Source: a virus
Virus record (IMG/VR): IMGVR_UViG_3300044730_000313
Span: 1-64,000 of that record
Reading direction: 5' to 3' (one strand)
Length of the DNA: 64,000 bases
In this document: positions 3,377-27,750 of the stretch, one piece after another
How positions within the stretch are numbered: position 1 is the stretch's first letter
How the letters are laid out: every line of letters starts with the position of its first letter
Program-made: the position numbers and the translations under genes
Notes under the pieces: generated by a model
What the model was told of the DNA's origin: nothing
The model's input: only the letters and a program-made list of their open reading frames with translations
Database searches by the model: none

Positions 3377-3622
3377 TTAGATGGTTGTTGTGCTACTAGT
3401 TGTTGTTGTTGTGGTAGGTGCTGCTGTAGTGCTACTAGTAGTGGTAGTAGTTGGAGGAGCTGTAGTGGTAGTGGTGGTTGTAGGAATACAACACTCATTA
3501 GCATCAATCTCTTTCCAGTTACCCACCTTAGGTTTATTGCGCTGAAGAATCAAACTACCAGCGATTACACGTCCTGTTCCATCGAAACGAACGTATGCTT
3601 TTAATTTATTATTAGTTGCCAT
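3377..3622 (-). CDS. small putative virion protein with poly-Thr tail (paralogue A1)
   Basis: KAYVRFDGTGR...PKVGNWKEI..ECC followed by about 35 aa of Thr/Ser/Pro. Confidence 0.75.
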   Translation of the reverse strand: MATNNKLKAYVRFDGTGRVIAGSLILQRNKPKVGNWKEIDANECCIPTTTTTTTAPPTTTTTSSTTAAPTTTTTTSSTTTI

Positions 3623-3634
3623 AGGTTAGGAGTT

Positions 3635-3856
3635 TTATCTAGCAGTTGTACTACTAGTAGTGGTTGTAGTGGTAGGAGGTACCGTTGTTGAAGATGTGGT
3701 TGTAGTGGTAGGTTCACAGCACTCATATGCTGGAATCTCCACCCATTTACCCACCTTGGGCTTCTTTCTCCTGAGGATCAGGCTGCTGGGGACGATTCTC
3801 CCAGTACCATCAAAGCGTACATAGGCTTTGAGCGGGCGTTTGTCAATTGTGGCCAT
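3635..3856 (-). CDS. small putative virion protein with poly-Thr tail (paralogue A2)
   Basis: Same KAYVRFDGTGR...PKVGKWVEI..ECC head followed by a Thr/Ser tail. Confidence 0.75.
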   Translation of the reverse strand: MATIDKRPLKAYVRFDGTGRIVPSSLILRRKKPKVGKWVEIPAYECCEPTTTTTSSTTVPPTTTTTTSSTTAR

Positions 3857-3858: not shown

Positions 3859-4875
3859 TTAATAATTAAGATTGTATTTATTAGATAATTTTTTAAGCTC
3901 GTTTGCGTAATACCATGTACAACGTGGTTTACTCTTTTCATCATTTAACACCACATCTAGATGAGGATCTTTTGTGGGATCTCCACCCGTGTGATATTTA
4001 GCTTTGTAAAAGCAGGCATATCCATCCATTTGTGTAGATACTATCCCTGCGTTATGAAAGATGGGGTGGGTTTCTAGTTTGGTGATGGGATCAGGGGCCC
4101 ATGAAAAGCCCATTTCATCTATCACCTTCACCTCTTTTTCTCTCACCCATAGGTTCCAAAGCACAGCCCACATATCAGCGCACCAGCTCTGGAATCCCTT
4201 GTTTTCGTTCTCAAAGAACTCTTTGTTTATTCTCTGAAGGTAGCTTCTAATCAGGATGCAATCGTTCATCACCTTGCTCCAGAAAGCTGCATCTATGTTC
4301 TTCAGAAGGTATTGTGCACCACCTGAATCTTTATCTTTTTGTTCAGCTTCCTCACGACTAATCCCAACTACACTTCCAATCTCAGCTAGGATGTCTCGTG
4401 TTTTGTATTCTTCCAGCTTATCAGGAAGCACATCTCTTACCTTGCTGTCAAAGTAAGCAGCGCCTATATAACTCTGTGTATCAGATAGATAGCACACGTC
4501 ATCATCTATATACTTTTGAACGTCAAACGCTTCTGTAAAGAGCACGTCTGAATCGCAGTAGAAGATTGCCTTATCACTGAGCTCTGGGTGTTCTTTCCAG
4601 TGTCTCCAAAGGGTGTAAGGTCTCAGCACTGGGATGTATATCCCTAATAGTTGACTCACATCATGTTCATCTTTGTAGAAGTGAAACTCAGCTTCTGGAT
4701 AGAGGTCTGTTACCTGTTTCCATTTCTTGTTCACCTCTCTGTCTTTAGGAGTGAAGATGAGCACAACTGCTTTATCTGCCTCTCCTCTGTTCTTTAAACT
4801 TTCCAGCCACATGTGCACTTGCCATGTGTAATACTGATCGTCTGGTTGAACACAGACATACTTAAGATCCTTCAT
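3859..4875 (-). CDS. GT-A glycosyltransferase, similar to peptide O-glycosyltransferases (GT95 HPAT / GT96 SERGT-like)
   Basis: Motifs YYTWQ, YIPVLRPY, YCDSD (DxD) and SWCADMWA occur in the order of the plant HPAT/SERGT motifs (YxxWQ, YxxxNxP, DxD, W.xEMY). Confidence 0.6.
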   Translation of the reverse strand: MKDLKYVCVQPDDQYYTWQVHMWLESLKNRGEADKAVVLIFTPKDREVNKKWKQVTDLYPEAEFHFYKDEHDVSQLLGIYIPVLRPYTLWRHWKEHPELSDKAIFYCDSDVLFTEAFDVQKYIDDDVCYLSDTQSYIGAAYFDSKVRDVLPDKLEEYKTRDILAEIGSVVGISREEAEQKDKDSGGAQYLLKNIDAAFWSKVMNDCILIRSYLQRINKEFFENENKGFQSWCADMWAVLWNLWVREKEVKVIDEMGFSWAPDPITKLETHPIFHNAGIVSTQMDGYACFYKAKYHTGGDPTKDPHLDVVLNDEKSKPRCTWYYANELKKLSNKYNLNY

Positions 4876-4901: not shown

Positions 4902-5051
4902 CTACGTTGGTTGCGTAGTGGATGTAGTGGTAGTGGTGAAATTGTCATTAAGCTCACAAAGCTGGCAGGATATTCCCTCCAGTTGCTTTGCAATCTGCCA
5001 CAACAAGTTCTCTGTGGTACCCCACCCTATTTGTCTGCTAGGTATTGGCAT
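4902..5051 (-). CDS. 49-aa anchor + poly-Thr protein (paralogue B1; not in ORF track)
   Basis: Manual translation MPIPSRQIGWGTTENLLWQIAKQLEGISCQLCELNDNFTTTTTSTTQPT*; near-identical to the N-terminus of the 5053..6201 protein. Confidence 0.8.
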   Translation of the reverse strand: MPIPSRQIGWGTTENLLWQIAKQLEGISCQLCELNDNFTTTTTSTTQPT

Positions 5052-5052: not shown

Positions 5053-6201
5053 TTAATAAGTTTTGTTCAGTATGAAAATATCACTATATATACTGTTTCC
5101 TGTGCTAGCAGCACCCCATTGAATAGTGACATCTAATGTATTACTGATTGTTGTATCAAATGTTGTACTATTGACTGTGTTAAACGCAAAACCCTCAACA
5201 ACACCATTCACCGTTTTAGTGTAGTGGAATCCACCTAAAGTGACAATTGATGCTACACCAGCAGCTCCTAGTTGTCTAATGGTGAAATCTATATTCAAAT
5301 TAAACACATTGTTTGTAATATTTGTGATGTTCTGTGCTCCACTGTCAAGTAGGATAACAGATCCTGTTTTCACTCTAACTCTTATAGTTTGGTTATTTGT
5401 AGCAGTTAAAAGTCCACCAAACACAGCTCTAAAGCTATCTCCTACAGAGAACCCATTAGCTGGTACAGATAGTGTACCCACACCACCGTTAATTAAACTG
5501 GTTTCTGTAGTGGTGTTAGTGATTATAGTGCTGTTTGCTGTCTGAGCAAAAAGTCCATAATTCACTGATGTTGGTAGTGTTGCAGAAGTTCCACTGGTAC
5601 CTGAAGTGCCACTAGTACCAGTAGACCCACTAGTGCCTGAGGTACCCGAGGTTCCAGTTGATCCACTTGTACCGCTAGTTGCGCTCGTACCACTAGTACC
5701 AGCAGTACCAGAGGTACCGTTTGTACCATTACCACCAGCAGCTCCATTGAGGTTAACACCCCAAGAGCTATAAGTGCCTGATCCCGTCAATTGAGAAGGT
5801 GTACCAAATACCAAAACCCCTGTAAGGGGATTATATGAAGTGACCGTTGAAACCTGATGATTATTAATATCGTATGCTATCAGTACGTCCTGAGCTGTTG
5901 TATATGCTAGCCCAGTACCTATAGTGATAGTTCCACCAGTTCCTAATGTAAATGTGCTGGATGACGTAGTTTGATATCTATCTCCAGGTTGTCCAGCACT
6001 TCCTGAAGTTCCCGATGTTCCAGCTGTCCCAGATATGCCCGATGTTCCAGAGGTGCCAGAGGTACCGCTTGTACCAGTGATGATTCCAATGTTATCATTG
6101 AGCGTACAGAGCTGACAGCTAGCTTGCTCCATCTGTTTAGCAATCTGCCACAGCAGGTTATCCTGTGTGCTCCAGCCTATCTGTCTTGAGGGTATTGGCA
6201 T
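5053..6201 (-). CDS. putative virion fibre/decoration protein with GTS repeats (paralogue B2)
   Basis: 382 aa: MPIPSRQIGW anchor, two (GTS)n tracts flanking a beta-rich domain, C-terminal beta-sandwich-like domain. Confidence 0.7.
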   Translation of the reverse strand: MPIPSRQIGWSTQDNLLWQIAKQMEQASCQLCTLNDNIGIITGTSGTSGTSGTSGISGTAGTSGTSGSAGQPGDRYQTTSSSTFTLGTGGTITIGTGLAYTTAQDVLIAYDINNHQVSTVTSYNPLTGVLVFGTPSQLTGSGTYSSWGVNLNGAAGGNGTNGTSGTAGTSGTSATSGTSGSTGTSGTSGTSGSTGTSGTSGTSGTSATLPTSVNYGLFAQTANSTIITNTTTETSLINGGVGTLSVPANGFSVGDSFRAVFGGLLTATNNQTIRVRVKTGSVILLDSGAQNITNITNNVFNLNIDFTIRQLGAAGVASIVTLGGFHYTKTVNGVVEGFAFNTVNSTTFDTTISNTLDVTIQWGAASTGNSIYSDIFILNKTY

Positions 6202-7282: not shown

Positions 7283-7523
7283 TGTTGTTTCCTTTTGTTT
7301 TGTTAATAAATTTATCTACAGATGCTATACCGAAGCAAGCAATAGTAAGTATTTTAAAAGAGTCAAATATGAACTCGTTAACCAACAGAGGCTTGTTCAT
7401 AGCTCCTGTAACAATATCTGCCACAGCAAATATTGTCATCATGATAAAGGCAGCAAATCCAATCACTGCTTTCTCGTTGATGGAATTCTCATCATTGAAG
7501 AGATCGCTTAAGAACTTTTTCAT
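7257..7523 (-). CDS. putative holin (two TM)
   Basis: 88 aa, two hydrophobic helices, charged C-terminus, immediately after the endolysin. Confidence 0.6.
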   Translation of the reverse strand: MKKFLSDLFNDENSINEKAVIGFAAFIMMTIFAVADIVTGAMNKPLLVNEFIFDSFKILTIACFGIASVDKFINKTKGNNNEQEGIES

Positions 7524-8119
7524 GCTAGTAGATTATGGTATTCTTTAAAATGTTTGATACGATCAGCCAGACCAATTGTACCACCATTTACACGCTTAGT
7601 CACCTCAGTGACTACAGCGTCTGTAGCACCCTTGTCAGCTATTTTGTGTAATCCATTTTTATGGAAAAACCATGCTGCAGAAAGGAGGGGATATTTGCTA
7701 GCCACCAAGTCTGGGTTAGCTAGGATGTCCTCAGGAACTACAGCATCAAATGCTTTGTAGTTATCCTTTCCTGTAAGCTGGATGTAGCCTCTTCCACGGA
7801 ACTTAAATCCTTCACCAGAGGCTTCAGGACCATTGCCCATTCTTCCTCCATATACCAAATTGGCTATCTTTTCAGGCTTACGCTCGTATTCCTTAGCCTT
7901 GGCTTCTGTAGGGAAGTATTTCTTAAATATACCTAGAAGGCCTTTTGCCCCATAGTTCAGGTTTTCGGTTGTAGCTTTGAACCCACCACTCTCATGCCCT
8001 GTTTGAGCTAAGAAGTGAGCTAGTCGTAAGGGTGTATTGAGCTCAAACTTCTGCATAGTGTCAGGAATCTGAGATATTACGCTGTCTGGGATGTGTCCTT
8101 TTAGTTTATCTAGGTTCAT
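7520..8119 (-). CDS. endolysin, glycoside hydrolase family 19
   Basis: RLAHFLAQTGHESGGF, ENLNY, FRGRGYIQLTGKDNY, TKRVNGG motifs. Confidence 0.92.
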   Translation of the reverse strand: MNLDKLKGHIPDSVISQIPDTMQKFELNTPLRLAHFLAQTGHESGGFKATTENLNYGAKGLLGIFKKYFPTEAKAKEYERKPEKIANLVYGGRMGNGPEASGEGFKFRGRGYIQLTGKDNYKAFDAVVPEDILANPDLVASKYPLLSAAWFFHKNGLHKIADKGATDAVVTEVTKRVNGGTIGLADRIKHFKEYHNLLA

Positions 8120-8909: not shown

Positions 8910-11900
8910 ATGCCAAACAGTTACACATATTTTAAACCTGAAATCAAGCAGTGGTTTCTAGATAATGTTCCCACCAGTAAACGCATCCTAGATGTAGGTC
9001 CTGGACAGGGTACATATTCTGACCTGCTTAGAGATCATGGGTATAGAATAGATGCTGTAGAAATCTGGGCTCCTTACGTAGATCAGTTTGGATTGAGGGC
9101 TAAATATGACAATGTCTACATAGCAGACATCCGTGAGTTTGATATAAGCGATTATGACTTCATCATACTGGGAGATGTCCTAGAACATCTGTCTACAGAG
9201 GATGCCAAGCGTCTAATAGACAAGATATTATTTTCAGAGATGGGGTGTCTTGTGGCCATTCCCTACATGATGCCTCAAGAGGGGGCAGAATATGGAAATG
9301 AACATGAAACCCATTTACAGCCAGACCTCACACCACAGGTGATGATGGATAGATATCCCAGTTTGGTAAAACTGTATGATAATCAGTGGTATGGATATTA
9401 CGTAATGGAGGATAGCAAGTGGGAAAAGGCCTATGTACTCTATGCCACAGAAAGCTACAAGGACACTGTACAAGCCTGTGTGGACAGCATCAAGATGGTG
9501 AGTGAGATTCCCATTATTGTCTACATGCTTAATTCAGATGTTGATATAAAGGGAGCTGTCACCATCAAGTGGGAATGCAATGTTGACAATCCTAAGCAGG
9601 ACAAATACATCAATAGAGCTAGCAGTGACATATATAAGATACTTATACAACGTCCAGCTATTGTAAAAGATGCGCTTAGATATGCTAAGACGGTGGCTTA
9701 TATAGATAGCGATAGTGTAGCTACAAGATATATAGATACCATCTTTGACTATTTCCCAGTTAAGAATACCCATCCCTATTTTGTAGAGGGTATATATGAC
9801 TGGATGGTGCTAAATGGTAGGGGTGGAGCAATGTCTTATGATGACCTATCCACCACCCTAGAACACCCAGCTTGTTACTTGTTCAAGGTGGATCAGTATT
9901 TTAGAACCACCTACAGACAGACAGGCTATTTTGTAACTGGTCAGTGGTGTGAAAACTTTCTAGATGAATGGGTGTGGATGTGTAACCATCCAGCCATCCT
10001 TAAGAACCCACAATATTACGCTCCCTATCACGAGGAAACCATAGCCAATGTGCTTCTGTGGAAGTGGAGGGTGAACAAGGGACTGCCCTATCTATACATA
10101 AACGGTTCACTAGATATGGTGAACAATGTAGAATTCACTGGTTACAAGAAACACACTAGTCATTTTGTAGCCAGCCCTGCTTCTGAGAACCAACTGCTTT
10201 TCTATCACGGAGAGAAAGATGCTGTCACCATGTACAGAATGATAGAACGTATAAACCGTCTAAGAGTGCTGTTTGTAGCTCCTCACCTGTCTACAGGTGG
10301 TATGCCTGCCTTCCTCTTGAGAAGAATACAAGCTCTGCAGGCGCACACAAACGTAGACATCTATGTGGTGGAATATGCCAATCACAGTGATCACTATGTT
10401 GTGCAGAAAGATCAGATAAAACAGCTAGTGAAACACTTCTACACCCTGGGAGAAGATAAGCACGAACTTATAAATATCATACAACAGAACTTTATAGATA
10501 TTGTACACGTAGAGGAGATGGTGGAAGATGGCTGGAACAACTGGCCAGAGAGTTTAAGGGAAGCTCTCTATGCTTCTGATAGGACATGGAGGATGGTGGA
10601 AACCTGTCATAACATTGTGTTCAAGCCAGACATTGAGAAGCGCTTCCATCCAGACAGCTACATGTTCTGCACTCCCCACCACCTGAAGACATTTGTAAAC
10701 ATGCCTTCTCCTAAATACGTGGTGGAATACCCCATAGAAAAGAAGAATGCTGTAAAGCTAGACCTAGGACCAGGAAAGCATGTACTTAATGTAGGACTAT
10801 GGACTCCTGGCAAGAATCAAGGAGAAGCTGTAGAGCTAGCTAGACAAATGCCAGATGTGCACTTCCACTTTGTAGGGAATCAAGCAGGTAACTTCCAGCA
10901 CTACTGGGAACCTCTAATGAAAGATGTTCCTTCTAATGTGCATGTGTGGGGAGAGCGTAATGATGTAGGTAGTTTTATGAAGGGGTGTGATGTCTTCCTT
11001 TTTAACAGTACGTTTGAGTGTAATCCTCTGGTGATTAGAGAAGCCATAGGATTTGGTAAACCCATCATAGCTCGCAACCTCCCACAATATGGAGACATGT
11101 TCACTAAATACATCACTGACCTAGACCCAAAGAGGCTCAAGGAACAGGTGTATGAACAGCTTGACAATCCAAAGAAGTATGATGTTCCTGAGAACGAAGA
11201 GTTAGAGTTTGCCCTGTCTCATCTTGCCATCTATCAGAAGGTGACACATAGTCCCATACAGTCTAATGAAACCATAACCATCGATCACAACTTTGTGTTA
11301 CAACCCTTCCTTGAAATCAAGGGTAGGTCTAAGAGTAAGTTCAGGGTGGAATATCTAGATGAGCAGGGCGTGTGTCATTACAGAAACACAATAGGTGTTA
11401 ACAACTGGGTGAAGCTCAACAGGAGGTGGTATACCAAGTGGACCATTAAGATATGGAAAGACGATGAGCCCTATTATGAATACACCCTAGACTATACAGG
11501 CAAACGCGTGTATATAGCCTTTGATAGTAAATCCTTGGGAGACACAATAGCCTGGATGCCCTACGCTCTTGAGTTTAAGAAGAAGCACAACTGCCATGTG
11601 ATAGTGAGTACATTCAAGAACTTTCTGTTTGATGTCGTTTATCCAGAGCTTGAGTTTATTGAACCAGGACAACCTGCTTCCAACATATATGCTCAGTATT
11701 GTATTGGTTGGTTTTACAATTCAGACAAAGAACCAGCTTTGTGTAACATCGTAAAGCTCCAAGAGGCAGCCACTAACATCTTAGGTCTTGAGTTTCAAGA
11801 GATTAGACCCAGAATAGCCTTCACTCCTGGTGACAATTTATATGGTAAATATGTTACAATAGCCACCAACTCAACAGCAGGCTGTAAGTTCTGGACCAAA

Positions 11901-12326
11901 GAAGGCTGGCAGCAAGTGATTAACTTCCTGCACGAGAAAGGATATAAGGTAGTAAATGTGTCCAAAGAAAAGAATCCTTTTGACAACTGTGAGCAGATAG
12001 AGGATGTGTCCATGGAAAACACTATGAATGTCATCCATCATAGCCATCTATTTATTGGACTATCTAGTGGACTTAGTTGGTTAGCCTGGGCTATGAATAA
12101 GAAGGTGGTGATGATATCCAACTTTACAGACTCAGATCATGAGTTTAGCTGCATCAGAATTACCAAGACAGATGTGTGTCATGGCTGTTGGAATAAGGCT
12201 GAATACAGATTTGATGCAGGAGATTGGGACTGGTGCCCAGAGCACAAAGGTACAGACAGACAGTTTGAATGTCACCAGAAGATATCTGCTAGTCAGGTTG
12301 TTTTTGCTCTTTTAAACCATATTTAA
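8910..12326 (+). CDS. four-domain enzyme: SAM methyltransferase + GT-A glycosyltransferase + GT4 glycosyltransferase + Aah/TibC-type O-heptosyltransferase
   Basis: ILDVGPGQG (SAM motif); YIDSDS (DxD); PHLSTGGMP / PGKNQ / FECNPLVIREA (GT4); SLGDTIAWMPY, FIGLSSGLSWLAWA and CHGCWN..WCPEH..FEC (TibC iron-finger). Confidence 0.82.
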   Translation: MPNSYTYFKPEIKQWFLDNVPTSKRILDVGPGQGTYSDLLRDHGYRIDAVEIWAPYVDQFGLRAKYDNVYIADIREFDISDYDFIILGDVLEHLSTEDAKRLIDKILFSEMGCLVAIPYMMPQEGAEYGNEHETHLQPDLTPQVMMDRYPSLVKLYDNQWYGYYVMEDSKWEKAYVLYATESYKDTVQACVDSIKMVSEIPIIVYMLNSDVDIKGAVTIKWECNVDNPKQDKYINRASSDIYKILIQRPAIVKDALRYAKTVAYIDSDSVATRYIDTIFDYFPVKNTHPYFVEGIYDWMVLNGRGGAMSYDDLSTTLEHPACYLFKVDQYFRTTYRQTGYFVTGQWCENFLDEWVWMCNHPAILKNPQYYAPYHEETIANVLLWKWRVNKGLPYLYINGSLDMVNNVEFTGYKKHTSHFVASPASENQLLFYHGEKDAVTMYRMIERINRLRVLFVAPHLSTGGMPAFLLRRIQALQAHTNVDIYVVEYANHSDHYVVQKDQIKQLVKHFYTLGEDKHELINIIQQNFIDIVHVEEMVEDGWNNWPESLREALYASDRTWRMVETCHNIVFKPDIEKRFHPDSYMFCTPHHLKTFVNMPSPKYVVEYPIEKKNAVKLDLGPGKHVLNVGLWTPGKNQGEAVELARQMPDVHFHFVGNQAGNFQHYWEPLMKDVPSNVHVWGERNDVGSFMKGCDVFLFNSTFECNPLVIREAIGFGKPIIARNLPQYGDMFTKYITDLDPKRLKEQVYEQLDNPKKYDVPENEELEFALSHLAIYQKVTHSPIQSNETITIDHNFVLQPFLEIKGRSKSKFRVEYLDEQGVCHYRNTIGVNNWVKLNRRWYTKWTIKIWKDDEPYYEYTLDYTGKRVYIAFDSKSLGDTIAWMPYALEFKKKHNCHVIVSTFKNFLFDVVYPELEFIEPGQPASNIYAQYCIGWFYNSDKEPALCNIVKLQEAATNILGLEFQEIRPRIAFTPGDNLYGKYVTIATNSTAGCKFWTKEGWQQVINFLHEKGYKVVNVSKEKNPFDNCEQIEDVSMENTMNVIHHSHLFIGLSSGLSWLAWAMNKKVVMISNFTDSDHEFSCIRITKTDVCHGCWNKAEYRFDAGDWDWCPEHKGTDRQFECHQKISASQVVFALLNHI

Positions 12327-12513
12327 TCCACCTATACCAGATGCGTTCGTGGAAGTAGTATTGTACAGGCTTCCATAGGAGCTCAGCAATACCAAAGGCA
12401 GCACCTGCTTTTAAAGATCCTGTCACTACAAGCATTGTAGCAAACCCAATCAGTGTGCTTATCAGACGGTAGCTAATAGTCTTAGCTATATGTCGTTTCT
12501 TTAATACAGTCAC
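12289..12513 (-). CDS. DUF2061-like small membrane protein
   Basis: RHIAKTISYR...YYFHERIW signature; a family often found next to cysC. Confidence 0.75.
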   Translation of the reverse strand: MTVLKKRHIAKTISYRLISTLIGFATMLVVTGSLKAGAAFGIAELLWKPVQYYFHERIWYRWIKYGLKEQKQPD

Positions 12514-12896
12514 AGCTTACCCTCCGCTTTCATTTGCTCACGTATTTTTGTGGCAGATATGTCATGTATATCTGCAGGAGGAATGTGCTCAATAACATCA
12601 TAGCCCACACCTCTACCAATGTTGATGGACTCAATATTAGGAATCTTTATGATGCTCAGCCTACCAGTCTCAAGTAGTTCTTTAAGTTCACTAGATAGAT
12701 TCATCAGTATTTCCTGTGCGGTCCAGGGATTCTTTTCATCCACAGGCACATCTCTTATGCAGAGAAGCACCTTCTTATCCTCGTTCAGAGCTTGATCAAT
12801 AAGCCATCTGTGTCCTGCATGCCAGGGTTGCCATCTTCCAATAAACATTGCCCACTCTCCTGATTTGTGAGCAGCTTTTGCCAGTACGTTTTGCAT
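12510..12896 (-). CDS. HIGH-superfamily nucleotidyltransferase (cytidylyltransferase-like; possible minimal ATP sulfurylase)
   Basis: FIGRWQPWHAGH and ISATKIR motifs; ATG at 12896 preferred over the track start at 12935. Confidence 0.7.
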   Translation of the reverse strand: MQNVLAKAAHKSGEWAMFIGRWQPWHAGHRWLIDQALNEDKKVLLCIRDVPVDEKNPWTAQEILMNLSSELKELLETGRLSIIKIPNIESINIGRGVGYDVIEHIPPADIHDISATKIREQMKAEGKL

Positions 12897-18493: not shown

Positions 18494-21400
18494 GGTGTAA
18501 GCTTTTTAATAATATCTTCAAGTTGAGCAATCCTTTCTTCAAGTTTAGTCATCTTATAGATGTGAACTTGGTGATAATCAACATTATAGTAGCCACGTTC
18601 GTCTGTTTTTACAGCATTTGGTAGCACCTCTTTGATATTTTGTGCAGAGTAGCCTATGTTGATAACACTAGGATCACCCTCTTTCCAGTTGTAATAAATA
18701 GGACTTACACAGTCAGAAGAAGAAACACGACAATGTACATTTTTGAGGCGTTCATCAGAGGTTTCAAAATAGGCTACTGCCCACATACAGGATGTAGCAC
18801 AGAAGTTATTCCAATAGAAGGTGCATCCGCAAGAGCCTGATATGTTGCAGCCTCCACCACCTCCCGCTGTTCCTGATATAGTGTTTCCACATCCACCAAG
18901 GACTGAAGAACATCCACCTGAAGCTGTGTTTGCGCATCCACTAAATACACCTGATGCTATTGCTGAGGCAGTGTTATAAGAGCCTCCGCCCACTGTAGAG
19001 CAATAACTTGAAGTGGTATTTAAGGCACCCCCTGATATTGTACTTCCGAGTCCTGAAGCTGTGTTTGCAGCACCACCGCCAATAACTGATTGTATTCCTG
19101 AGCCGAGATTCAGAATACCACCTCCAATTGTTGAACAAGCCCCTGTGGCTCTGTTTTGACAGCCGCCTCCTATAAATGAAAGACATCCTGCTGCGACAAA
19201 ACAAGTTGCTGCAACACTATATGTTCCTCCCGCTGCATTCCAAGTCCCCCCAACTGTGTTGTTTCCAACCCCGCCTGCCACTGTCGCTCCCGCTGTGCAA
19301 AGAGAACAAACAGTAGAGCAAAGGATATTACATATACCTCCACCTATTGTTGCATTATTACCTTGCACGACATTTCTGTAACCCCCACTAATTGATGATG
19401 CATAGCCTATTGCAGAGTTTACATATCCTCCTGCTACAGTTGCATAATAGTTTGAGGCTGTGTTTGTTGTTCCTCCCCCAACAGTGGCTCTTCTAACTGT
19501 GGCGCAGTTGTTTATACCTCCTGCAACAGTTGTTTGGTCTGCACTTGCACAGTTTGCACTACCTCCTCCGACAAATGAATCGCTTCCTAATGATTTGTTG
19601 AATTTACCACCTGAAACTGTTGAGCAAGCACCTGAAGCAACATTCTGTTGTCCACCCCCAACAGTTGACCTCGCTGCTGTTGAGCAGTTAAGTATTCCTC
19701 CCCCAACCGTGGAGCCATTGTTTCCTGTGGCTTCGTTCCTATACCCACCTGATATTGTTCCGTAACCTCCTGAAGCTATGTTTTGATAACCACCTCCTAT
19801 AAATGCGTAGGCTCCCGATGCTGTGCTATTATAACCTCCTGCTACGACACTTCTTCCGCTGTTAGATGTGTTACTATCACCACCTCCTATAAAAGTATAA
19901 ACCCCCGAAGAAACATTCGATGCACCGCCTCCAACAACAGTTGCATAATTACCGCTTGCAGTGTTTCCCGTTCCTCCACCTACGAATGAACGAGAACCTG
20001 AAGATAAATTACTTTCACCACCACCTATAAATGAACAGCCTCCTGATGAAGTGTTATTAATACCACCCACAACAGAAGCCCTTGAACTTGATGCAGTGTT
20101 ACTTTGTCCGCCTCCAACAAAAGACCATCCGCCTGACGCTGTGTTACTTCTACCGCCCACTACAGCAGCACATATACTTGAAGCTGTGTTAGATTGACCA
20201 CCAACTACCACCGAGTAGTTACCACTAACAGTATTAGCACCACCTGTTAAAATGCCTCCTTCTGTAGCTGATGATATTTGGTTACTATAACCACCTGCTA
20301 TGACATGATAAGAACCACCTACGATTCTATTGTTATAACCACCACCAATTGAGTTTACGAATCCTGTGGTAATACAGTTTTGAAATCCACCACCAATGAC
20401 ATTACATCCTGAGGATGTTCCACAAATTCTATTTTGTTGCCCTCCACCAATTACATTTCTTACACCTGCTGTAGAATAGTTATTACTACCACTACCTATA
20501 AATTCATATCCTCCTGTTGCAGTATTAGTTTGACCACCTGCAATTACAGCAAAATTATTTGAAACAGTGTTTGATTCCCCTCCTGCGACAGTAGATGAAG
20601 TTCCACTTGCAGTGTTTGCTACACCACCTCCAACAGTAGAACCATATCCACTACTTGTGTGGTTTCTACCACCTCCCACAAATGAATACGCACCTAAGGC
20701 TTTATTATTATCACCACCTACTACAGCACCTACATATCCTGGAGCACAGTTGTAATAACCACCCCCTACAAAAGAATATCCATTACTTGCCTGATTTCCT
20801 GTTCCACCAACAACAGTTGAAACATAACTTCCACTAGCAGTATTAAGACAACCACCACCTACAAATGAACAAGCACCTGAAGCAATGTTTGCTCTTCCTC
20901 CTGAAACTACCGAAGTAGCACCTGAAGCGGTATTTTGATAACCACCTGAAATAGTTGAGTTTGTTCCTGATGCTGTACTATTATATCCACCACCAATAGT
21001 TGCATAATAACCTCCACTTGCTACGTTATCTCCACCTCCACCTATTGCACTTGTTACTCCTGAGGCTACGTTACTATTACCACCTGCTACTGTTGAAAAT
21101 AATCCTGATGCTACATTACTATTACCACCTGTTACTGTAGAGCGATCACCTGCTGCTCTATTCTGAAAACCTCCACCTATTGTACTATAAATACCTGCTG
21201 TACAGACCGTTGGGTTCACAGTTGGCACTCCATAAGCATTCCATGTTCCACCCGTAGTGTTATTACCAATACCACCTGCTATTGTCGCTCCTGTTACGCA
21301 ACAAGTTGCTGTTGGGCTACATATCTTATTCCATGAACCACCACCAACAACAGACATATCCCCACTTGCGTTGTTGCATAAACCTGCACCCACAAATGAG

Positions 21401-24400
21401 TATCTACCACTAGCTGTGTTTTGCTGACCCCCAGCCACTGCTGAGTATCCACAGGTAGCTGCGTTATAATAACCACCACCAACAAATGTTCCCGAAGCAG
21501 TAGAGCAGATTCCTACACCTCCAACAATTGCAGCATATCCTGAAGAAGAAAGATTGCTATATCCACCAACGACAATTGAACAGTTACCTGATGCTGTATT
21601 TGATTGACCACCAAGCACAGCAGCACGATAACCCGATGATGTATTGCTATCACCACCACCCACTATTGACCTTCCACCTGAAGCTGTGTTTGAGGCACCA
21701 CCTGCTACAGTTGGGAAATAACCTCCACTTGCTGTGTTACTTGAACCACCACCAACAAAACTCCATCCTGAACTTGAAGCTGTGTTTCCAGAACCGCCAA
21801 CTACTGCCGCTCTAAATCCTGATGCACAATTGTTATAACCACCACCAACAAATGAAAAACATCCTACGGCTCTACTATTATAACCACCTGAGACGGTTGA
21901 ATATCCATGAGTAGCGCAGTTAAGAAGACCACCTCCAACTGTTGCGTAACAACAAGTTGTTTGGTTTGCATTACCACCTGAAATAGTGGAAATATACCCT
22001 GAGGCTGTGCTATTAACACCAAATACTGTAGTAAAACTTGCACTACCTGTATTACTTCTTCCTCCTACTGTTGCGTAATTTCCTGATGCAGTATTAGCTT
22101 GTCCTCCTGTGACTGTTGCTCTTGACCCTGATGCTGTATTAGAACACCCACCGCTTACAGTTGTGATGTAACCTGATGCTGTATTAGTCAAACCACCTGC
22201 TACAGTAGAATAAGTGCTTGAAGCTGTGTTAGTTCTACCTCCCCCCACCGCAGATGCACCTCCTGATGCTACGTTACCAAATCCACCTACAACAGCCGCA
22301 CAACCTCCTGAAACACTATTTCCTTGACCTGCTCCTATAAAGTTAGCCCAAGCTGATGTAGTATTTGATACACCACCTACTATAGTTCCATAGTAATTGC
22401 ATGATACAGTGTTATTATATCCACCACCAATAAATGCAAGACCTGAGCCTGCTATGCAGTTTGCACTACCCCCAACAATTGAAGAACGACCTGTAGAAGC
22501 TACAATGATATTACCATAGCCGCCACTTATACTATTGCAAGCAGTTGATGTAGAGTTGCCTCTTCCTCCTAAAACAGTTGATGTATTTCCTGATGCTGTA
22601 TTATTACAACCACCAACAACGCTTGAATTTGCACCCGAAGCTGTGTTCGTGCATCCACCACCTACAAATGATATATTACCACTTGCTGCGTTTGCTTTTC
22701 CACCTACTAATGCAGCACAGTTACCTGCCACTCCATTGATACTACCTGCTCCTAAGAATGCATAAGTACCACTTACTGTGTTAAAATATCCACCTCCTGC
22801 TACTGAATATACTCCTGATGCTGTATTGTTTTGTCCACCTGCTACAACTGAAAAATTATTTGTGGCAAGATTTGATTCACCACCTGCTATCGTTCCTCTT
22901 GTGCCTGACGCTGTATTACTTTGTCCACCCCCAACTGATGAAAAATTCCCCGTAGCTCTATTCTGAAATCCTCCTCCTATGAAAGAGTATTGACCTGCGT
23001 TACATACAGTAGGAGCAACAGTGAACGCACATGAAGCCAAAGACCAAGAACCACCTGTTGTATTATTTCCTACTCCACCTACTACAACTGCACCAAAAGC
23101 TAAACATCCTGATGTAGAATTAATTGCACGATTGCAATTACCACCACCTATAAATCCATTTATTGCATTTACTCTATTTGCGCAACCTCCAACCATGGCT
23201 GCGCCTGTTCCATCTACTAAATTAAGATATCCACCTGAAACAGTAGAACCTCCGTTAGCAGTTGCACAATTCAATAACCCACCACCTACAAATGAATATC
23301 CTCCTGATGAACTATTTGCTCTACCTCCACTGACTGTTGAAACAAAGCAAGAAGCAATATTACAGCATCCACCACCAATTGTTGAATGTCCTCCTGATGC
23401 TGTATTACCTTGACCACCTCCTACAAACGAACAGTTACCTGATGCTGTATTACTAATTCCTCCTGCAACTGTTGAAGCAGTTCCTGAAGCACCTCCTGCA
23501 TTACCTCCTGCCACTGTCGCAAATGCTCCACTCGCTGTGTTAACGATACCACCACCTACAAAAGCATATCCTGCTGAGGCTGTGTTTGCTTGACCACCAC
23601 CTATAAAGCTACAATTTCCTGAAGCAGTATTACATTGACCACTTCCTACTCCTGACCTAAGACCTGATGCACCATTAGCAAAACCTGCTCCAATAAAAGC
23701 CATACATCCTGAAGCAGAGTTAGCATTACCCCCACCAACATGAGATTCATTACCTCCTGCTGTGTTGTTATAACCACCACTTATTGACGACCAACTACCG
23801 CTTGATAGGTTACCCCTACCACTTAAAACACCTGCTGTTGTTCCTGAGGCCAAGTTGTTGCACCCAGCTCCAACAAAGCTAAATGCTCCGCTAGCAGTGT
23901 TAGTTCTACCGCCTGCTAATGAAGCGCATTTTCCAGAGACTACGTTATTACTACCTGCAAGGATGGCTGAGTACGAGTTGCTCACACTGTTGTTTCCTCC
24001 CACCACAATCGCGGATTCTGAGGCACTTGTGATCAAACAGTTTCTATATCCACCACCGATGAAATTGTATCCTCCTGATGTAATGCAGTTGCAGATACCA
24101 CCTACTAGTGTTTGCCAAACACCTGTTGAGATGTAGTTAAAACACCCTCCACCTATAAATGATTCAGCAGAAGAAGTTGCTCGGTTATAACATCCACCTA
24201 CAACAACATCGTGTGGACCTGATGCAACGTTTACAACACCACCGCCTATAACAGAGCGGTAGCCTGATGCAGTGTTGGTTTGACCTGCTCCAATAAAAGA
24301 TTGTCCACCTGAGGCTGTATTTACATTACCTCCTCCAAGTACAGATATAGAACCTGAAGCAGTGTTTCCATATCCACCTCCAATGAAAGAAATATATCCA

Positions 24401-27400
24401 CTTGCAGATTGCAGGCTTCCGCCAACTATTGCTGAAAAGTTTCCACAAGCACTTAAATATTGACCACCTCCTGCAAATGAACCTTGTCCACCTGCTAAGT
24501 TAGTAAAACCACCAACTGCTGTACTTCTATATCCGCTTGCACTATTACTTTGCCCTCCTAAAGCTGCACTGTAACTACCTGCTGAAGCATTACCTACACC
24601 ACACCTAACCGAAGAACATGTTCCTCCACCAAGAATAATAACAGCAGAAGAACCTACATTTATACCACTAGTGCCACTGGTACCTGACGTTCCAGATGTA
24701 CCACTTGATCCACTAGTGCCTGATGTACCTGAAGATCCAGCTGTACCAGAGGTACCTGTTGTACCACTAGTCCCTGTTGTTCCTGAGGTGCCTGATGTAC
24801 CGTTTACACCACTGGTCCCAGATGTACCTGATGACCCAGAGGTGCCACTAGACCCACTAGTGCCACTAGTTCCTGGAGATCCGTTAGTACCACTTGAACC
24901 TGCTGTTCCACTTGTTCCACTGCTACCAGCTGTGCCTGAGCTACCGCTAGTTCCTGATGATCCAGAAGTGCCTGACGTACCATTAGTACCGTTTATACCA
25001 CTTGTACCACTGCTACCAGAGGTGCCACTAGTTCCAGACGTACCTGTTGTACCGCTGGTGCCACTAGTTCCTGTTGTACCACTACTTCCTGCTGTACCGC
25101 TAGACCCAGAGGTTCCAGATGTACCTGGACTACCTGCTGTACCACTAGTGCCAGAAGATCCTGAAGATCCAGAACTTCCACTTGAGCCACTTGTACCACC
25201 ACTACCGTCTGTACCTGATGTGCCAGACGTGCCTGATGAACCAGAGCTACCACTGGTGCCTGAGCTTCCAGAGGTTGCACTTGTACCAGAGGTACCAGAC
25301 GTACCTGTGGTTCCAGAGGTACCTGTAGTTCCACTAGTTCCTGCAGTGCCACTTGTACCACTTGATCCACTAACACCAGAGGTTCCAGATGAACCTGATG
25401 TACCTGTCGTACCAGATGTACCTGATGTAGAAGATGATCCAGAGGACCCTGAACTACCACTAGTTCCTGATGTACCTGAAGGAGGGGTGAATGTGGTTTG
25501 TGCGTATGAGTAGTTACTTGTTCCTTCTGTATAGAATGTAATGTTTTGACTTCCGCCTCCTGTGTGCTCAGCATAGATTTGGCAATAGAGCCTGTCTGTA
25601 GTGAGCATTGCTGTTTGAGGTAGGAACAGGTCTGTAAAGAACTCCTTGATGGTATTGGTGGTCATCACCTCAGTGTCAAGGTTGGTGGTTCCTAAGGAAA
25701 CCACGCTTCCACCTGTGGAGTCACATTTGTAAAGCTCCACATCCACCTTCATGCTAACATTAGCATTTATTGAGAAGTGTGTAACCCATGCCCAAAGTCC
25801 TGAAGGTAAACTTATTACGCCTGGAACATTTGAGTCAGTGGCAAATGTAGCAATTAGTGTTCTGGTGCTACCAGCAACACTTGTCACCACTGTTTGTTCT
25901 GCACCACCTGTAGGTGTACCAGACCATTGCTTATATGTAGGAGTGCCTATTGCACTACTAGTGTTTAATGATTGGTTTAGATAGTATACAAGTCCTCCAG
26001 ATACACCGTTTTGACCTGAGGAGCCCGATGTTCCAGATGTGCCTGAAGTACCAGTTGTTCCTGAAGAACCACTAGTTCCACTGGACCCAGAACTTCCAGA
26101 GCTTCCAGAGCTTCCGCTAGTACCACTTGTTCCAGATGTACCACTGGTTCCTCCAGAACCATCCGTACCACTAGAACCAGAGGTTCCACTTGTTCCAGAA
26201 GATCCTGAGCTTCCAGACGATCCACTTGTTGCACTTGTTCCACTTGTGCCTGATGTTCCTCCAGATCCATCAGTACCGCTTGAGCCTGATGTACCTGAAG
26301 TGGCAGAAGTACCTGATGTTCCACTCGTTCCCCCTGTTCCATCTGTACCAGATGTTCCAGAAGTGCCTGAGGTTCCACTAGTTGCAGAGGTTCCTGAGGT
26401 ACCTGTTGTACCTGAAGTTCCTGACGTTGCACTAGTTCCACTACTTCCTGACGTTCCAGATGTACCGCTTGTACCTCCAGATCCATCAGTTCCAGAGCTA
26501 CCAGATGTTCCACTGGTTCCACTAGACCCACTGGTCCCTGTAGTGCCACTTGTTCCACTAGTTGCTGACGTACCAGAAGTACCAGATGTACCTCCTGTTC
26601 CGTCTGTAGCGCTAGTACCTGATGTACCACTTGTAGCTGATGTACCCGATGTACCTGATGTTCCACCAGTACCATCAGTGGCTGATGTTCCAGACGTACC
26701 ACTGGTGCCAGAAGTGCCTGTAGAACCTGAGGTACCAGATGTGCCCGTAGTACCGCTAGTCCCAGATGTTGCACTGGTTCCTGAAGTTCCCGTAGTACCA
26801 CTGGTGGCAGAGGTTCCTGACGTACCTGATGTTCCTGTTGTGCCTGATGTGCCAGAAGTTCCACTTGTACCACCAGTACCATCTGTTGCAGATGTACCAG
26901 AAGTACCCGTAGTGCCTGATGTGCCACTTGTTCCTGCTGTCCCACTTGATCCAGAAGAACCACTTGTTCCTGTTGTACCAGAGGTTCCCGTAGTTCCAGA
27001 GGTTCCACTTGTACCTGTAGTTCCAGACGTACCAGAGGTCCCACTAGTACCGCTGGTTCCTGATGTACCCCCTGAACCATCTGTTCCTGATGTTCCAGAT
27101 GTCCCCGTGGTACCTGAAGTTCCAGTGGTGCCTGACGTGCCTGACGTACCACTAGTTCCAGAGGTACCAGTAGTGCCAGAAGTACCTGTGGTACCTGATG
27201 TTCCTGTGGTTCCACTGGTCCCGCTGGTACCACTTGTACCAGAGGTTCCAGAGCTACCTGATAGGTCACCAGCAAGGGCTGCCTCTATCTTCTCAAGAGC
27301 TATCTGAAGGTTGTCATTTGTATTAATCTTTGTGTAGACCAGGTTGGGTCCTTCATAGAACACACAGGTGGCGTTCAATATAATAGGACAAGGATTGGCT

Positions 27401-27750
27401 CCACAAATAACAGGAGAATTACAGTTCCCTAGGAAATTACTAATTTGACTGTTATTAGAAACAAGTTTCTGCACAAAGGGAATTCCTTCATTAGAAGTTC
27501 CTGAGGACTCAGTCATAATCACTCTAGGAGCCATTGTAAATGTAGAAGGGGTTTCTGAACCCTTGGCAGACATTAGCTTCTTTAAAAACGGTACCTTTTC
27601 TGTACTAGGTTCTTCTGAAGACTTAGGGGCAGGTGCTGTCACCCTAGGTGCACTCTTAGGATTATGAATGAATATAGCAGGCGTAGATTGCCCTGAAGTT
27701 CCAGAGGAACCAGAGCTTCCATAACCTAGTATAGAAGGTAGTACGTTCAT
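18490..27750 (-). CDS. giant tail fibre/spike: Cys-motif anchor, (GTS)n tracts, YadA-head-like beta-solenoid repeats, C-terminal peptidase S74 chaperone
   Basis: 3086 aa; well over 100 repeats of about 14-15 aa of type N.ASG..S.VGGG; C-terminal TSDERLKN...IGYSAQ...LPNAV...VDY plus coiled coil. Confidence 0.85.
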   Translation of the reverse strand: MNVLPSILGYGSSGSSGTSGQSTPAIFIHNPKSAPRVTAPAPKSSEEPSTEKVPFLKKLMSAKGSETPSTFTMAPRVIMTESSGTSNEGIPFVQKLVSNNSQISNFLGNCNSPVICGANPCPIILNATCVFYEGPNLVYTKINTNDNLQIALEKIEAALAGDLSGSSGTSGTSGTSGTSGTTGTSGTTGTSGTTGTSGTSGTSGTSGTTGTSGTTGTSGTSGTDGSGGTSGTSGTSGTSGTSGTTGTSGTSGTTGTSGTTGTSGSSGSSGTAGTSGTSGTTGTSGTSATDGTGGTSGTSGTSGTTGTSGTSGTSATSGTTGTSGTSATSGTSGTTGTSGTSGSTGTSGTSGTSGTSATDGTGGTSGTSGTSATSGTSGTSATDGTGGTSGTSGTSATSGTSGTTGTSGSSGTSGTSGSSGTDGSGGTSGTSGTSGSSGTSATSGTSGTTGTSGTSATSGTSGTSGTSGTDGTGGTSGTSGTSATSGTSGSSGTDGSGGTSGTSGTSATSGSSGSSGSSGTSGTSGSSGTDGSGGTSGTSGTSGTSGSSGSSGSSGSSGTSGSSGTTGTSGTSGTSGSSGQNGVSGGLVYYLNQSLNTSSAIGTPTYKQWSGTPTGGAEQTVVTSVAGSTRTLIATFATDSNVPGVISLPSGLWAWVTHFSINANVSMKVDVELYKCDSTGGSVVSLGTTNLDTEVMTTNTIKEFFTDLFLPQTAMLTTDRLYCQIYAEHTGGGSQNITFYTEGTSNYSYAQTTFTPPSGTSGTSGSSGSSGSSSTSGTSGTTGTSGSSGTSGVSGSSGTSGTAGTSGTTGTSGTTGTSGTSGTSATSGSSGTSGSSGSSGTSGTSGTDGSGGTSGSSGSSGSSGSSGTSGTAGSPGTSGTSGSSGTAGSSGTTGTSGTSGTTGTSGTSGTSGSSGTSGINGTNGTSGTSGSSGTSGSSGTAGSSGTSGTAGSSGTNGSPGTSGTSGSSGTSGSSGTSGTSGVNGTSGTSGTTGTSGTTGTSGTAGSSGTSGTSGSSGTSGTSGTSGTSGINVGSSAVIILGGGTCSSVRCGVGNASAGSYSAALGGQSNSASGYRSTAVGGFTNLAGGQGSFAGGGQYLSACGNFSAIVGGSLQSASGYISFIGGGYGNTASGSISVLGGGNVNTASGGQSFIGAGQTNTASGYRSVIGGGVVNVASGPHDVVVGGCYNRATSSAESFIGGGCFNYISTGVWQTLVGGICNCITSGGYNFIGGGYRNCLITSASESAIVVGGNNSVSNSYSAILAGSNNVVSGKCASLAGGRTNTASGAFSFVGAGCNNLASGTTAGVLSGRGNLSSGSWSSISGGYNNTAGGNESHVGGGNANSASGCMAFIGAGFANGASGLRSGVGSGQCNTASGNCSFIGGGQANTASAGYAFVGGGIVNTASGAFATVAGGNAGGASGTASTVAGGISNTASGNCSFVGGGQGNTASGGHSTIGGGCCNIASCFVSTVSGGRANSSSGGYSFVGGGLLNCATANGGSTVSGGYLNLVDGTGAAMVGGCANRVNAINGFIGGGNCNRAINSTSGCLAFGAVVVGGVGNNTTGGSWSLASCAFTVAPTVCNAGQYSFIGGGFQNRATGNFSSVGGGQSNTASGTRGTIAGGESNLATNNFSVVAGGQNNTASGVYSVAGGGYFNTVSGTYAFLGAGSINGVAGNCAALVGGKANAASGNISFVGGGCTNTASGANSSVVGGCNNTASGNTSTVLGGRGNSTSTACNSISGGYGNIIVASTGRSSIVGGSANCIAGSGLAFIGGGYNNTVSCNYYGTIVGGVSNTTSAWANFIGAGQGNSVSGGCAAVVGGFGNVASGGASAVGGGRTNTASSTYSTVAGGLTNTASGYITTVSGGCSNTASGSRATVTGGQANTASGNYATVGGRSNTGSASFTTVFGVNSTASGYISTISGGNANQTTCCYATVGGGLLNCATHGYSTVSGGYNSRAVGCFSFVGGGYNNCASGFRAAVVGGSGNTASSSGWSFVGGGSSNTASGGYFPTVAGGASNTASGGRSIVGGGDSNTSSGYRAAVLGGQSNTASGNCSIVVGGYSNLSSSGYAAIVGGVGICSTASGTFVGGGYYNAATCGYSAVAGGQQNTASGRYSFVGAGLCNNASGDMSVVGGGSWNKICSPTATCCVTGATIAGGIGNNTTGGTWNAYGVPTVNPTVCTAGIYSTIGGGFQNRAAGDRSTVTGGNSNVASGLFSTVAGGNSNVASGVTSAIGGGGDNVASGGYYATIGGGYNSTASGTNSTISGGYQNTASGATSVVSGGRANIASGACSFVGGGCLNTASGSYVSTVVGGTGNQASNGYSFVGGGYYNCAPGYVGAVVGGDNNKALGAYSFVGGGRNHTSSGYGSTVGGGVANTASGTSSTVAGGESNTVSNNFAVIAGGQTNTATGGYEFIGSGSNNYSTAGVRNVIGGGQQNRICGTSSGCNVIGGGFQNCITTGFVNSIGGGYNNRIVGGSYHVIAGGYSNQISSATEGGILTGGANTVSGNYSVVVGGQSNTASSICAAVVGGRSNTASGGWSFVGGGQSNTASSSRASVVGGINNTSSGGCSFIGGGESNLSSGSRSFVGGGTGNTASGNYATVVGGGASNVSSGVYTFIGGGDSNTSNSGRSVVAGGYNSTASGAYAFIGGGYQNIASGGYGTISGGYRNEATGNNGSTVGGGILNCSTAARSTVGGGQQNVASGACSTVSGGKFNKSLGSDSFVGGGSANCASADQTTVAGGINNCATVRRATVGGGTTNTASNYYATVAGGYVNSAIGYASSISGGYRNVVQGNNATIGGGICNILCSTVCSLCTAGATVAGGVGNNTVGGTWNAAGGTYSVAATCFVAAGCLSFIGGGCQNRATGACSTIGGGILNLGSGIQSVIGGGAANTASGLGSTISGGALNTTSSYCSTVGGGSYNTASAIASGVFSGCANTASGGCSSVLGGCGNTISGTAGGGGGCNISGSCGCTFYWNNFCATSCMWAVAYFETSDERLKNVHCRVSSSDCVSPIYYNWKEGDPSVINIGYSAQNIKEVLPNAVKTDERGYYNVDYHQVHIYKMTKLEERIAQLEDIIKKLTP
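24660..25480 (-). repeat. coding (Gly-Thr/Ser-Ser)n tandem repeat, tract 2
   Basis: Degenerate 9-nt period, about 270 aa of GTS/GSS/GTT. Confidence 0.9.
26010..27262 (-). repeat. coding (Gly-Thr/Ser-Ser)n tandem repeat, tract 1
   Basis: Degenerate 9-nt period, about 415 aa, with recurring TDGTGG/TDGSGG punctuation. Confidence 0.9.

Follow-up and report, generated by a model that had tools for sequence, protein, structure and literature searches.

Can a bacteriophage carry the means to glycosylate its own virion? The question is raised by the first 64 kb (hereafter the window) of the IMG/VR virus record IMGVR_UViG_3300044730_000313, which is 113,703 bp long and 98% complete. An initial annotation had proposed that donor-supply genes, protein-directed glycosyltransferases (GTs) and Ser/Thr-rich virion acceptors lie here together in one structural module. 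Our analysis centers on two enzymes and their neighbors: GTx (338 aa; 3859-4875, minus strand), a candidate poly-Thr O-glycosyltransferase with a soluble, GT8-like GT-A fold, and a 1138-aa enzyme (8910-12326, plus strand), in which methyltransferase, probable GT-A and GT4 domains precede a heptosyltransferase domain of the BAHT (Aah/TibC) type. We estimate at roughly 60% the probability that the phage encodes a cytoplasmic system that O-glycosylates its own fiber and decoration proteins. Such a system would consist of two separable enzyme-acceptor pairs, complemented by optional donor cassettes.

Two linkages of enzymes with candidate acceptors in diverged phages

The linkage of GTx to Ser/Thr tracts was assessed in 35 viral loci, grouped into 16 clusters, with homologues that are 28-38% identical to GTx and with a BAHT gene nearby in only one. 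Out of 40 open reading frames (ORFs) with a Ser/Thr tract in this set, 36 are no more than 2.5 kb away from the GTx gene, and such ORFs account for 15.5% of the near ORFs versus 0.8% of the far ORFs (p=1.8e-15, with loci treated as independent). The immediate same-strand neighbor of GTx is a poly-Thr gene in 9 of the 16 clusters, and the poly-Thr partners belong to 11 families without mutual similarity beyond their tracts. A converse set of 95 viral loci was picked solely by an in-frame run of at least 10 Thr codons; 10 of these loci have a GTx-family gene at a distance of 0.2-1.8 kb.

In loci with BAHT, poly-Thr ORFs follow GTx: they make up 77 of 844 ORFs where GTx is present and 13 of 657 where it is not, and full-length BAHT loci without GTx contain none at all. 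What recurs next to BAHT is a collagen-like fiber of Ser/Thr type, in which the X and Y positions of the Gly-X-Y triplets are 84% Ser plus Thr and 0% Pro. Such a fiber lies within 10 kb in 12 of 13 BAHT clusters and is found in 0 of 35 GTx-only loci. Some of these neighbors are giants, for instance a protein of 3087 aa with 892 triplets and another of 2733 aa with 705 triplets. The pairing extends to the cultured, T4-like and unrelated Microcystis phage Mel-JY01, where a GT4-BAHT fusion is encoded 1.7 kb downstream of a GTS/GSS collagen ORF, and to LR756501, a 735-kb uncultured phage with a collagen-like ORF of the G-S/T type 3.7 kb from BAHT. The Mel-JY01 ORF (PP395634.1, 2-3052, plus strand) runs off the start of the record and encodes at least 1016 aa, with about 200 GTS/GSS triplets and a globular end; over it, the record annotates antisense low-complexity coding sequences (1-651 and 739-2298) and a short coding sequence (2519-3052).

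Judged by gene neighborhoods, the dissociation is double: poly-Thr tracks GTx, and Ser/Thr collagen tracks BAHT. The random association across phages that would have refuted the proposal of the initial annotation is not observed. Leptolyngbya phage Lbo-JY46, with structural genes syntenic to those of the phage studied here, has none of the enzymes, no Ser/Thr tract, no run of four or more Thr and no G-X-Y run.

The 15-aa beta-roll repeats of the giant fiber in the window (18490-27750) were also considered as a BAHT substrate, by analogy with the beta-helix of TibA. They were downgraded because they occur in only 5 of 44 BAHT loci without a GTx hit, the sole set tallied, whereas Ser/Thr collagen recurs.

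The BAHT fusion enzyme

The fusion contains an S-adenosylmethionine methyltransferase domain (residues 18-106), a GT4 domain (623-757) and the BAHT domain (808-1132). The region from about residue 190 to 450 is a probable GT-A domain, which a language-model search groups with viral GT-A proteins; a phmmer search of residues 131-500 against PDB sequences returned nothing useful. The four-domain enzyme with an Aah/TibC-type end, as annotated initially, is borne out by a score of 275.7 bits against TIGR04414 (hepto_Aah_TibC), well above the curated equivalog cut-off of 200, and the BAHT domain aligns with the TibC structure 4RAP with an E-value of 5.6e-51.

Reference residues of TibC, namely the catalytic base, the donor contacts, the iron finger and Arg-286, were taken from PMC4358343, and their conservation was counted over 82 phage copies. 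TibC Asp-110, Thr-226 and Lys-230 correspond to D878, T989 and K993 of the phage enzyme and are invariant in the 82 copies, and Trp-305 corresponds to W1057, which is kept in 81 of 82. The iron-finger residues Cys-339, 342, 358 and 370 (C1090, C1093, C1109 and C1121 in the phage) are likewise invariant (82/82). Because catalytic, donor-contact and iron-finger residues are conserved, the assignment to the BAHT family is sound at the level of sequence. At the stereoselectivity position 300, the phage copies have Ser or Gly, as does AAH, which accepts L,D-heptose (PMC4358343); the AAH-type residue is therefore compatible with the presence of an HldD gene in the phage. Other hallmarks of the BAHT family are assembly into a dodecameric ring and a beta-helical autotransporter as acceptor; in the phage, no autotransporter turned up.

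The fusion is the lone plus-strand gene within the minus-strand structural arm, and its 3' end overlaps by 38 nt with the convergent DUF2061 gene (12289-12513).

GTx and a protein with a predicted GT9 fold, and their likely compartment

The AlphaFold 2 model of GTx has a mean predicted local distance difference test score (pLDDT) of 95, and its DxD motif (D107xD109) is invariant in the family. The best structural matches, with Z-scores of 12.6-14, are glycogenin (14), LgtC (13.9), Skp1 GalT, UGGT and GlyE (12.6), and the closest solved structures belong to GT8, GT6 and GT24. GTx had been labelled GT95/96-like, and it does resemble the plant enzymes GT95 (HPAT) and GT96 in having a GT-A fold with DxD and a proposed peptide-hydroxyl substrate. 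However, neither GTx nor any of 25 homologues (0/26) matches the Pfam HPAT hidden Markov model (HMM) PF23452 at E-values up to 5, and the phage lacks a hydroxyproline system. In a language-model search with GTx, clusters that carry Pfam HPAT come nearest (0.96-0.97) and make up 22 of the top 30 named ones. This look-up is the sole pointer to kinship with GT95/96, which is not confirmed; the label gives way to that of a GT8-like GT-A fold. A GTx profile finds 939 cluster representatives, often fused with other GT or methyltransferase domains.

A second putative transferase, a 289-aa protein (16653-17522, minus strand; AlphaFold 2 pLDDT 88), has no hit in Pfam or NCBIfam. Foldseek assigns it a GT-B fold of the GT9 type, with 3tov (2.9e-11), WaaF (2.7e-10), and then WaaC and TibC among the matches (E-values from 3e-11 to 1e-6). 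Its initial description as GT9-like stands for the predicted fold and finds no echo in any HMM. phmmer searches with this protein and with GTx against PDB sequences gave nothing useful.

None of the enzymes has a membrane segment. No lipid-carrier transferase, flippase or ligase was found among the proteins scanned, which include only part of the replication arm.

Further GT genes, a GT11 (4.9e-28) and a GT2-methyltransferase fusion, are located at genome positions 111390-113456, at the end of the plus-strand arm. A circular map would place them beside the start of the window and the poly-Thr/GTx cluster.

Candidate acceptors

The eight proteins initially listed as carrying Ser/Thr tracts are of two kinds. 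Those with genes at 3377, 3635, 4902, 17569 and 17966, and the C-terminus of the protein encoded at 55843, have poly-Thr; those at 5053 and 18490 have collagen G-X-Y repeats instead. All are encoded on the minus strand. pT1 (3377-3622; 81 aa) has a conserved N-domain of ~47 aa that ends in ECC, followed by a poly-Thr tail, and pT2 (3635-3856; 73 aa) is a paralogue that also has a poly-Thr tail. Homologues of pT1 in about 30 related loci share this N-domain and continue with poly-Thr alone or with poly-Thr and globular domains. pT3 (4902-5051; 49 aa), again with a poly-Thr tail, has its N-domain in common with a 382-aa collagen-like fiber (5053-6201; Pfam Collagen 1.4e-11), which consists of (G-T-S)n repeats and a globular C-terminus. 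pT4 (17569-17913; 114 aa), whose gene always comes after the GT9-like gene in relatives, has a C-terminal T8 tail, and in pT5 (17966-18493; 175 aa) a T8 linker joins a conserved N-domain to a variable C-domain. The giant fiber (18490-27750; 3086 aa; Pfam Collagen 3.2e-68) comprises about 200 proline-free G-(S/T)-(S/T) triplets, then about 100 repeats of 15 aa, and an S74-chaperone-like end. In both fibers, the X and Y positions hold almost only Ser and Thr, and no Pro. A 1684-aa virion structural protein (55843-60897; phrog_37948 1.4e-107) has three poly-Thr/Ser runs around a Cys-rich domain, within its last ~150 residues. Beyond the window, further poly-Thr proteins are encoded at genome positions 64516, 65112 and 67851.

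The tract-bearing ORFs are confined to the structural arm (10/10, with 0 in the replication arm; Fisher p=0.0024). Thr codons are mixed within the tracts, which are therefore not DNA microsatellites. In relatives, the small proteins form three families, each with a conserved N-domain of 45-70 residues, and their variable ends consist of poly-Thr only, of poly-Thr plus a globular part, or of collagen plus a globular part. As far as sequences can tell, this is probably the pattern of modular fiber proteins that share a virion-docking end.

The protein at genome positions 67851-69041 (396 aa) is encoded downstream of the head protein gene, from which 1.9 kb and two small genes separate it. Its tail, C-ITTTSTTTT-VWP-STTTTST-LIP, is kept in 20 close relatives and recalls the C-terminal glycosylation sites of mycobacteriophage capsids. 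In the giant fiber, the about 100 repeats of the form GGxxNTASGxxSxV occupy the region 21700-27400, with 15 as the dominant spacing, and the match of the C-terminus to endosialidase chaperones (S74) is weak.

The heptose and sulfation cassette

Pfam and NCBIfam scans confirm the enzyme inventory of the initial annotation (split HldE, HldD, HAD phosphatase, cupin, CysC/APS kinase, HIGH nucleotidyltransferase and sulfotransferase), as well as the position of the block between the lysis genes, represented by a GH19 endolysin (7520-8119, minus strand; Pfam/NCBIfam scan), and the giant fiber (18490-27750). All genes of the cassette are on the minus strand. Those for heptose include an HldD-like ADP-heptose 6-epimerase (12785-13639; TIGR02197 4.9e-49, 167 bits versus a cut-off of 274.6), a PfkB-type heptose-7-phosphate kinase like HldE domain I (13636-14382; TIGR02198 8e-38, 130 bits versus 345), a heptose-1-phosphate adenylyltransferase like HldE domain II (14357-14758; TIGR02199 1.3e-26, 93 bits versus 181.5), and a 100-aa HAD-IIIA-like phosphatase with a DxDxT motif (14755-15057; 29.6 bits versus the GmhB cut-off of 162), which is a candidate GmhB analogue. 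In the contiguity of kinase, adenylyltransferase, phosphatase and epimerase, the cassette resembles the ADP-L-glycero-beta-D-manno-heptose pathway of GmhA, HldE, GmhB and HldD. It differs from the standard pathway in that HldE is split, scores remain below equivalog cut-offs, GmhA is missing and a small cupin (15042-15413; 123 aa) is present. The cupin may be a non-orthologous sedoheptulose-7-phosphate isomerase that substitutes for GmhA, because it is restricted to loci with heptose genes (in the 80 loci of relatives that were read, it is present only alongside them), because the genome has no GmhA/SIS protein, and because it is weakly similar to mannose-6-phosphate and lyxose isomerases, which are sugar isomerases of the cupin fold.

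The sulfation unit comprises an adenosine 5'-phosphosulfate (APS) kinase for the supply of 3'-phosphoadenosine 5'-phosphosulfate (PAPS) (15379-15831; Pfam APS_kinase, 48 bits versus 21.1) and a PAPS-dependent, weakly NoeE-like sulfotransferase (15828-16646; Sulfotransfer_3 2.1e-19, 71.1 bits versus 27; NoeE 6e-8). A minimal, NMNAT-like nucleotidyltransferase with a HIGH motif (GRWQPWHAGH; 12510-12935, probable start Met30 at ~12848) is paired with APS kinase in 17/17 loci, and not with heptose genes; it may belong to the same unit and possibly forms APS. ATP sulfurylase families had zero hits among the window proteins scanned. The first gene of the accessory cassette encodes a small DUF2061 membrane protein (12289-12513; Pfam 6.4e-15), and in relatives this gene accompanies the sulfation genes.

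Comparison within the clade

The BAHT domain was found in 179 IMG/VR relatives, and 80 loci were read. The conserved core order is DUF5856, pT1/pT2, GTx, pT3, collagen fiber, lysis genes and BAHT fusion; 3' of the fusion follow a variable cassette and then the giant fiber, and many loci go directly from BAHT to the fiber. BAHT belongs to the core of the clade, being present in all three records with a completeness of 90% or more. Heptose genes were seen in 4 of the 80 loci, each time with the cupin, and the sulfation unit plus GT9-like gene in about 16-20. Because heptose genes are this scarce and are missing from two complete BAHT-bearing relatives, the heptose donor genes are, by this comparison, a rare accessory addition and not a defining part of the system. 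What holds of the one-module proposal is that soluble, protein-directed GTs sit among candidate acceptors; the donors are part of that module in few genomes.

The major head protein has more than 598 relatives in IMG/VR, of which the 80 best are 96-99% identical, whereas the identity of the BAHT domain (window positions 11307-12323) among clade members is only 58-88%. Evolution or recombination is therefore much faster in the tail-proximal region. In more distant loci, large proteins with 19-29% Thr and without long Thr runs are encoded upstream of the BAHT fusion (L055:2873-6274, L061:2924-6118, and L076:1659-5987 and 19305-20888).

A model for virion glycosylation

We propose a model in which acceptors, sugars and effects on the virion are inferred from gene content, folds, catalytic residues and the linkage across phages. 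GTx would start or build glycans on poly-Thr stalks, which form the tails or linkers of modular proteins with conserved N-domains that probably dock on the virion. The BAHT fusion would put a heptose-type sugar on Ser or Thr of the proline-free (Gly-Thr-Ser)n collagen region, and the other domains of the fusion would then extend and methylate the glycan. The collagen glycans would stabilize the triple helix, by analogy with glycosylated Thr in other collagens that lack hydroxyproline. O-glycosylated collagens of this kind include the GPT repeats of Bacillus BclA, Riftia cuticle collagen and Mimivirus collagen; the sugars on triplet Thr stabilize the helix or form a surface nap, and in one case the modifying enzyme is encoded by the virus. 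The phage repeats differ from these in being entirely without proline, and the proposed enzyme differs in being a heptosyltransferase. The accessory cassette would add a five-step ADP-L,D-heptose pathway, with the cupin replacing GmhA, as well as sulfation (by APS kinase, sulfotransferase and perhaps the small nucleotidyltransferase) and a GT9-fold transferase.

Several observations weigh against this model. The phage is uncultured, and the evidence is genomic. The p-values carry no phylogenetic correction, for which clustering makes up in part, and the adjacency of enzymes and tracts within the clade is partly inherited synteny. The mini-proteins are themselves putative virion components. One other huge phage, in which BAHT stands alone, has no collagen-like gene within 20 kb. 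The established substrates of BAHT enzymes are, to our knowledge, autotransporters with a beta-helix, and neither collagen nor mucin-like tracts are among them. The initial claim that the phage makes its own donors holds insofar as heptose and PAPS genes are present; on the other side, there are zero SIS_2 matches, as expected for GmhA, in the phage genome or in four relatives, and all heptose-pathway genes score below equivalog cut-offs, even though the right family is the best match each time. The HldE kinase is missing from two complete relatives that retain BAHT, and most relatives, being without any heptose gene, would have to rely on a donor from the host. That heptose is the sugar moved by the phage BAHT, as initially claimed, we infer from the family of the enzyme, and the claim has lost a support: TibC Arg-286 contacts adenine N1, and its mutation abolished or largely diminished activity (PMC4358343), yet at this position (Thr-1038 in the enzyme studied here) the 82 phage copies have Thr (77), Val (2), Ala (2) or Ile (1). 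The donor may therefore differ, notably in its nucleotide part.

With these reservations, a specific joint version of the model is possible, if somewhat doubtful as a whole. It combines two modules, both widespread and separable from each other: a GT8/HPAT-like GT-A enzyme that serves poly-Thr stalks, and BAHT fusions that serve proline-free (Gly-Thr-Ser)n collagen, in which the helix would depend on O-glycans, and it would make some lake phages self-sufficient in ADP-heptose (with the cupin for GmhA) and in sulfation. The mini-proteins may then be little beyond a virion anchor and a glycan brush.

Alternative explanations

The same genes could be read without any modification of the virion. 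One such reading takes the Ser/Thr tracts as plain spacers and the collagen as an ordinary shaft, with the GTs directed at other targets, e.g. host proteins or small molecules, and with the linkage explained by co-inheritance of tail-module genes. Poly-Thr does serve as an interdomain linker in relatives, collagen-like fibers are common in phages without known glycosylation, and 85 of the 95 viral poly-Thr loci have no GTx in the short stretch available. We nevertheless think this reading unlikely, since adjacency persists with partners that share only the tract, since poly-Thr/GTx and Ser/Thr collagen/BAHT dissociate doubly, and since, in mini-proteins made of an anchor and a Thr tail, the distal part could be functional only if the tail carries a modification. 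Another reading, which we judge improbable, turns the enzymes toward the host envelope: donors and transferases would act at the cytoplasmic face on precursors of lipopolysaccharide (LPS) core, capsule or exopolysaccharide, in auxiliary metabolism or superinfection exclusion, and the fibers would be mere neighbors in a hypervariable tail-proximal island. The protein-directed nature of the BAHT family, whose equivalog cut-off is passed, speaks against it, as do the place of BAHT in the core of the clade (3/3 records), the lack of membrane segments in the enzymes and the lack of a lipid-carrier transferase, flippase or ligase among the proteins scanned. It also leaves unexplained why GTx pairs with unrelated poly-Thr proteins and why BAHT pairs with Ser/Thr collagen in three lineages. 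In its favor, GT9-fold, GT4, GT2 and GT11 enzymes are typical of polysaccharide synthesis, some database sources name the 289-aa family LPS heptosyltransferase, the cassette is an accessory that moves between relatives, and Pyle et al. discuss the sequestration of LPS sugars by phage GTs; for the GT9-like, GT4, GT2 and GT11 activities, the envelope reading thus keeps some probability.

It is very improbable that the sugars are meant for DNA. Heptose and other sugars can be placed on hydroxymethylated phage bases, and for 5-hydroxymethylcytosine this is documented for phage HAD/kinase, cytidylyltransferase and GT-B enzymes, in clusters that may sit near structural genes (Pyle et al.). However, zero matches to Tet_JBP, DNA_methylase and Thymidylat_synt leave the genome, at 98% completeness, without a Tet/JBP dioxygenase, a C5 DNA methyltransferase or a hydroxymethylase of the thymidylate synthase family, and the GT-B enzyme in question is a BAHT with an intact protein-binding iron finger. 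On balance, O-glycosylation of the phage's own fibers and decoration proteins remains our preferred reading.

Relation to known systems

Among known systems, the BAHT enzymes Aah and TibC are closest to the fusion, whose C-terminal 330 residues pass TIGR04414 and retain the catalytic Asp, the residues that contact phosphate and heptose, and all four iron-binding Cys. The likeness is to a cytoplasmic, protein-acting enzyme, and the AAH-type stereoselectivity residue would fit L,D-heptose. Unlike Aah and TibC, the enzyme is encoded by a phage without an autotransporter, has methyltransferase, GT-A and GT4 domains fused in front, has Thr in place of the adenine-contact Arg-286, and has a (Gly-Ser/Thr-Ser/Thr)n collagen-like fiber as its candidate acceptor. 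A second parallel is offered by the serine-rich-repeat adhesins of Gram-positive bacteria, in which soluble GT4- and GT8-like enzymes (GtfA/B; GlyE and others) likewise act sequentially in the cytoplasm on long Ser/Thr repeats; GTx itself has GlyE (Z 12.6) among its top structural matches. The phage differs in that it has no accessory Sec system and that its candidate acceptors are Thr-rich and phage-borne, and the similarity is at the level of the fold only.

We know of no glycosylated phage particles that have been demonstrated outside mycobacteriophages. In mycobacteriophages, glycans are present on the C-termini of capsid and tail-tube proteins (Freeman et al. 2023, cited in PMC12619734); there, GTs encoded by the phage presumably act in the cytoplasm on its structural proteins, with C-terminal extensions as acceptors. 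The phage studied here, in contrast, is known from its genes alone, belongs to another host group and uses other enzyme families, and it has nucleotide-sugar and PAPS supply genes, BAHT, poly-Thr mini-proteins and collagen-like candidate acceptors in addition. Searches of the literature on phage TibC-like enzymes, phage ADP-heptose genes and poly-threonine virion proteins found nothing relevant.

If the model is correct, virion glycosylation extends to lake phages of a highly abundant clade, judging by the more than 598 IMG/VR relatives of the capsid gene and the 939 GTx cluster representatives, and the BAHT family has its first role outside autotransporters and outside pathogens. The folding of proline-free collagen-like phage fibers would be explained, and there would be consequences for virion stability, host recognition and evasion of grazing or immunity. 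The cassette of cupin (for GmhA) and split HldE would be a new version of a well-studied pathway. Since the enzymes are compact and soluble and would come with acceptor tags paired to them genetically (poly-Thr and Gly-Thr-Ser), they could also be of use in glyco-engineering.

Genome context and further observations

The first 81 kb of the genome form a minus-strand arm of structural or lytic genes, with terminase, portal and major head protein at 70.9-79 kb. By structural genes, the closest cultured relatives are Leptolyngbya phage Lbo-JY46, Cellulophaga phages and Flavobacterium phages; a Megablast search with 12 kb against cultured phages gave zero matches. A scan for promoters and terminators performed no better on the sequence than on shuffles. 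Three RNA runs contain a small share of the words of the BAHT gene, which we do not use as evidence of expression. The exact sequence of the BAHT gene was found again in 15 lake-water metagenome runs. Beyond the giant fiber, two more giant ORFs follow on the minus strand, one of 2072 aa without a Pfam hit (28231-34449) and one of 4290 aa (34449-47321) that has a weak relative in Lbo-JY46 (26% identity over 615 aa).

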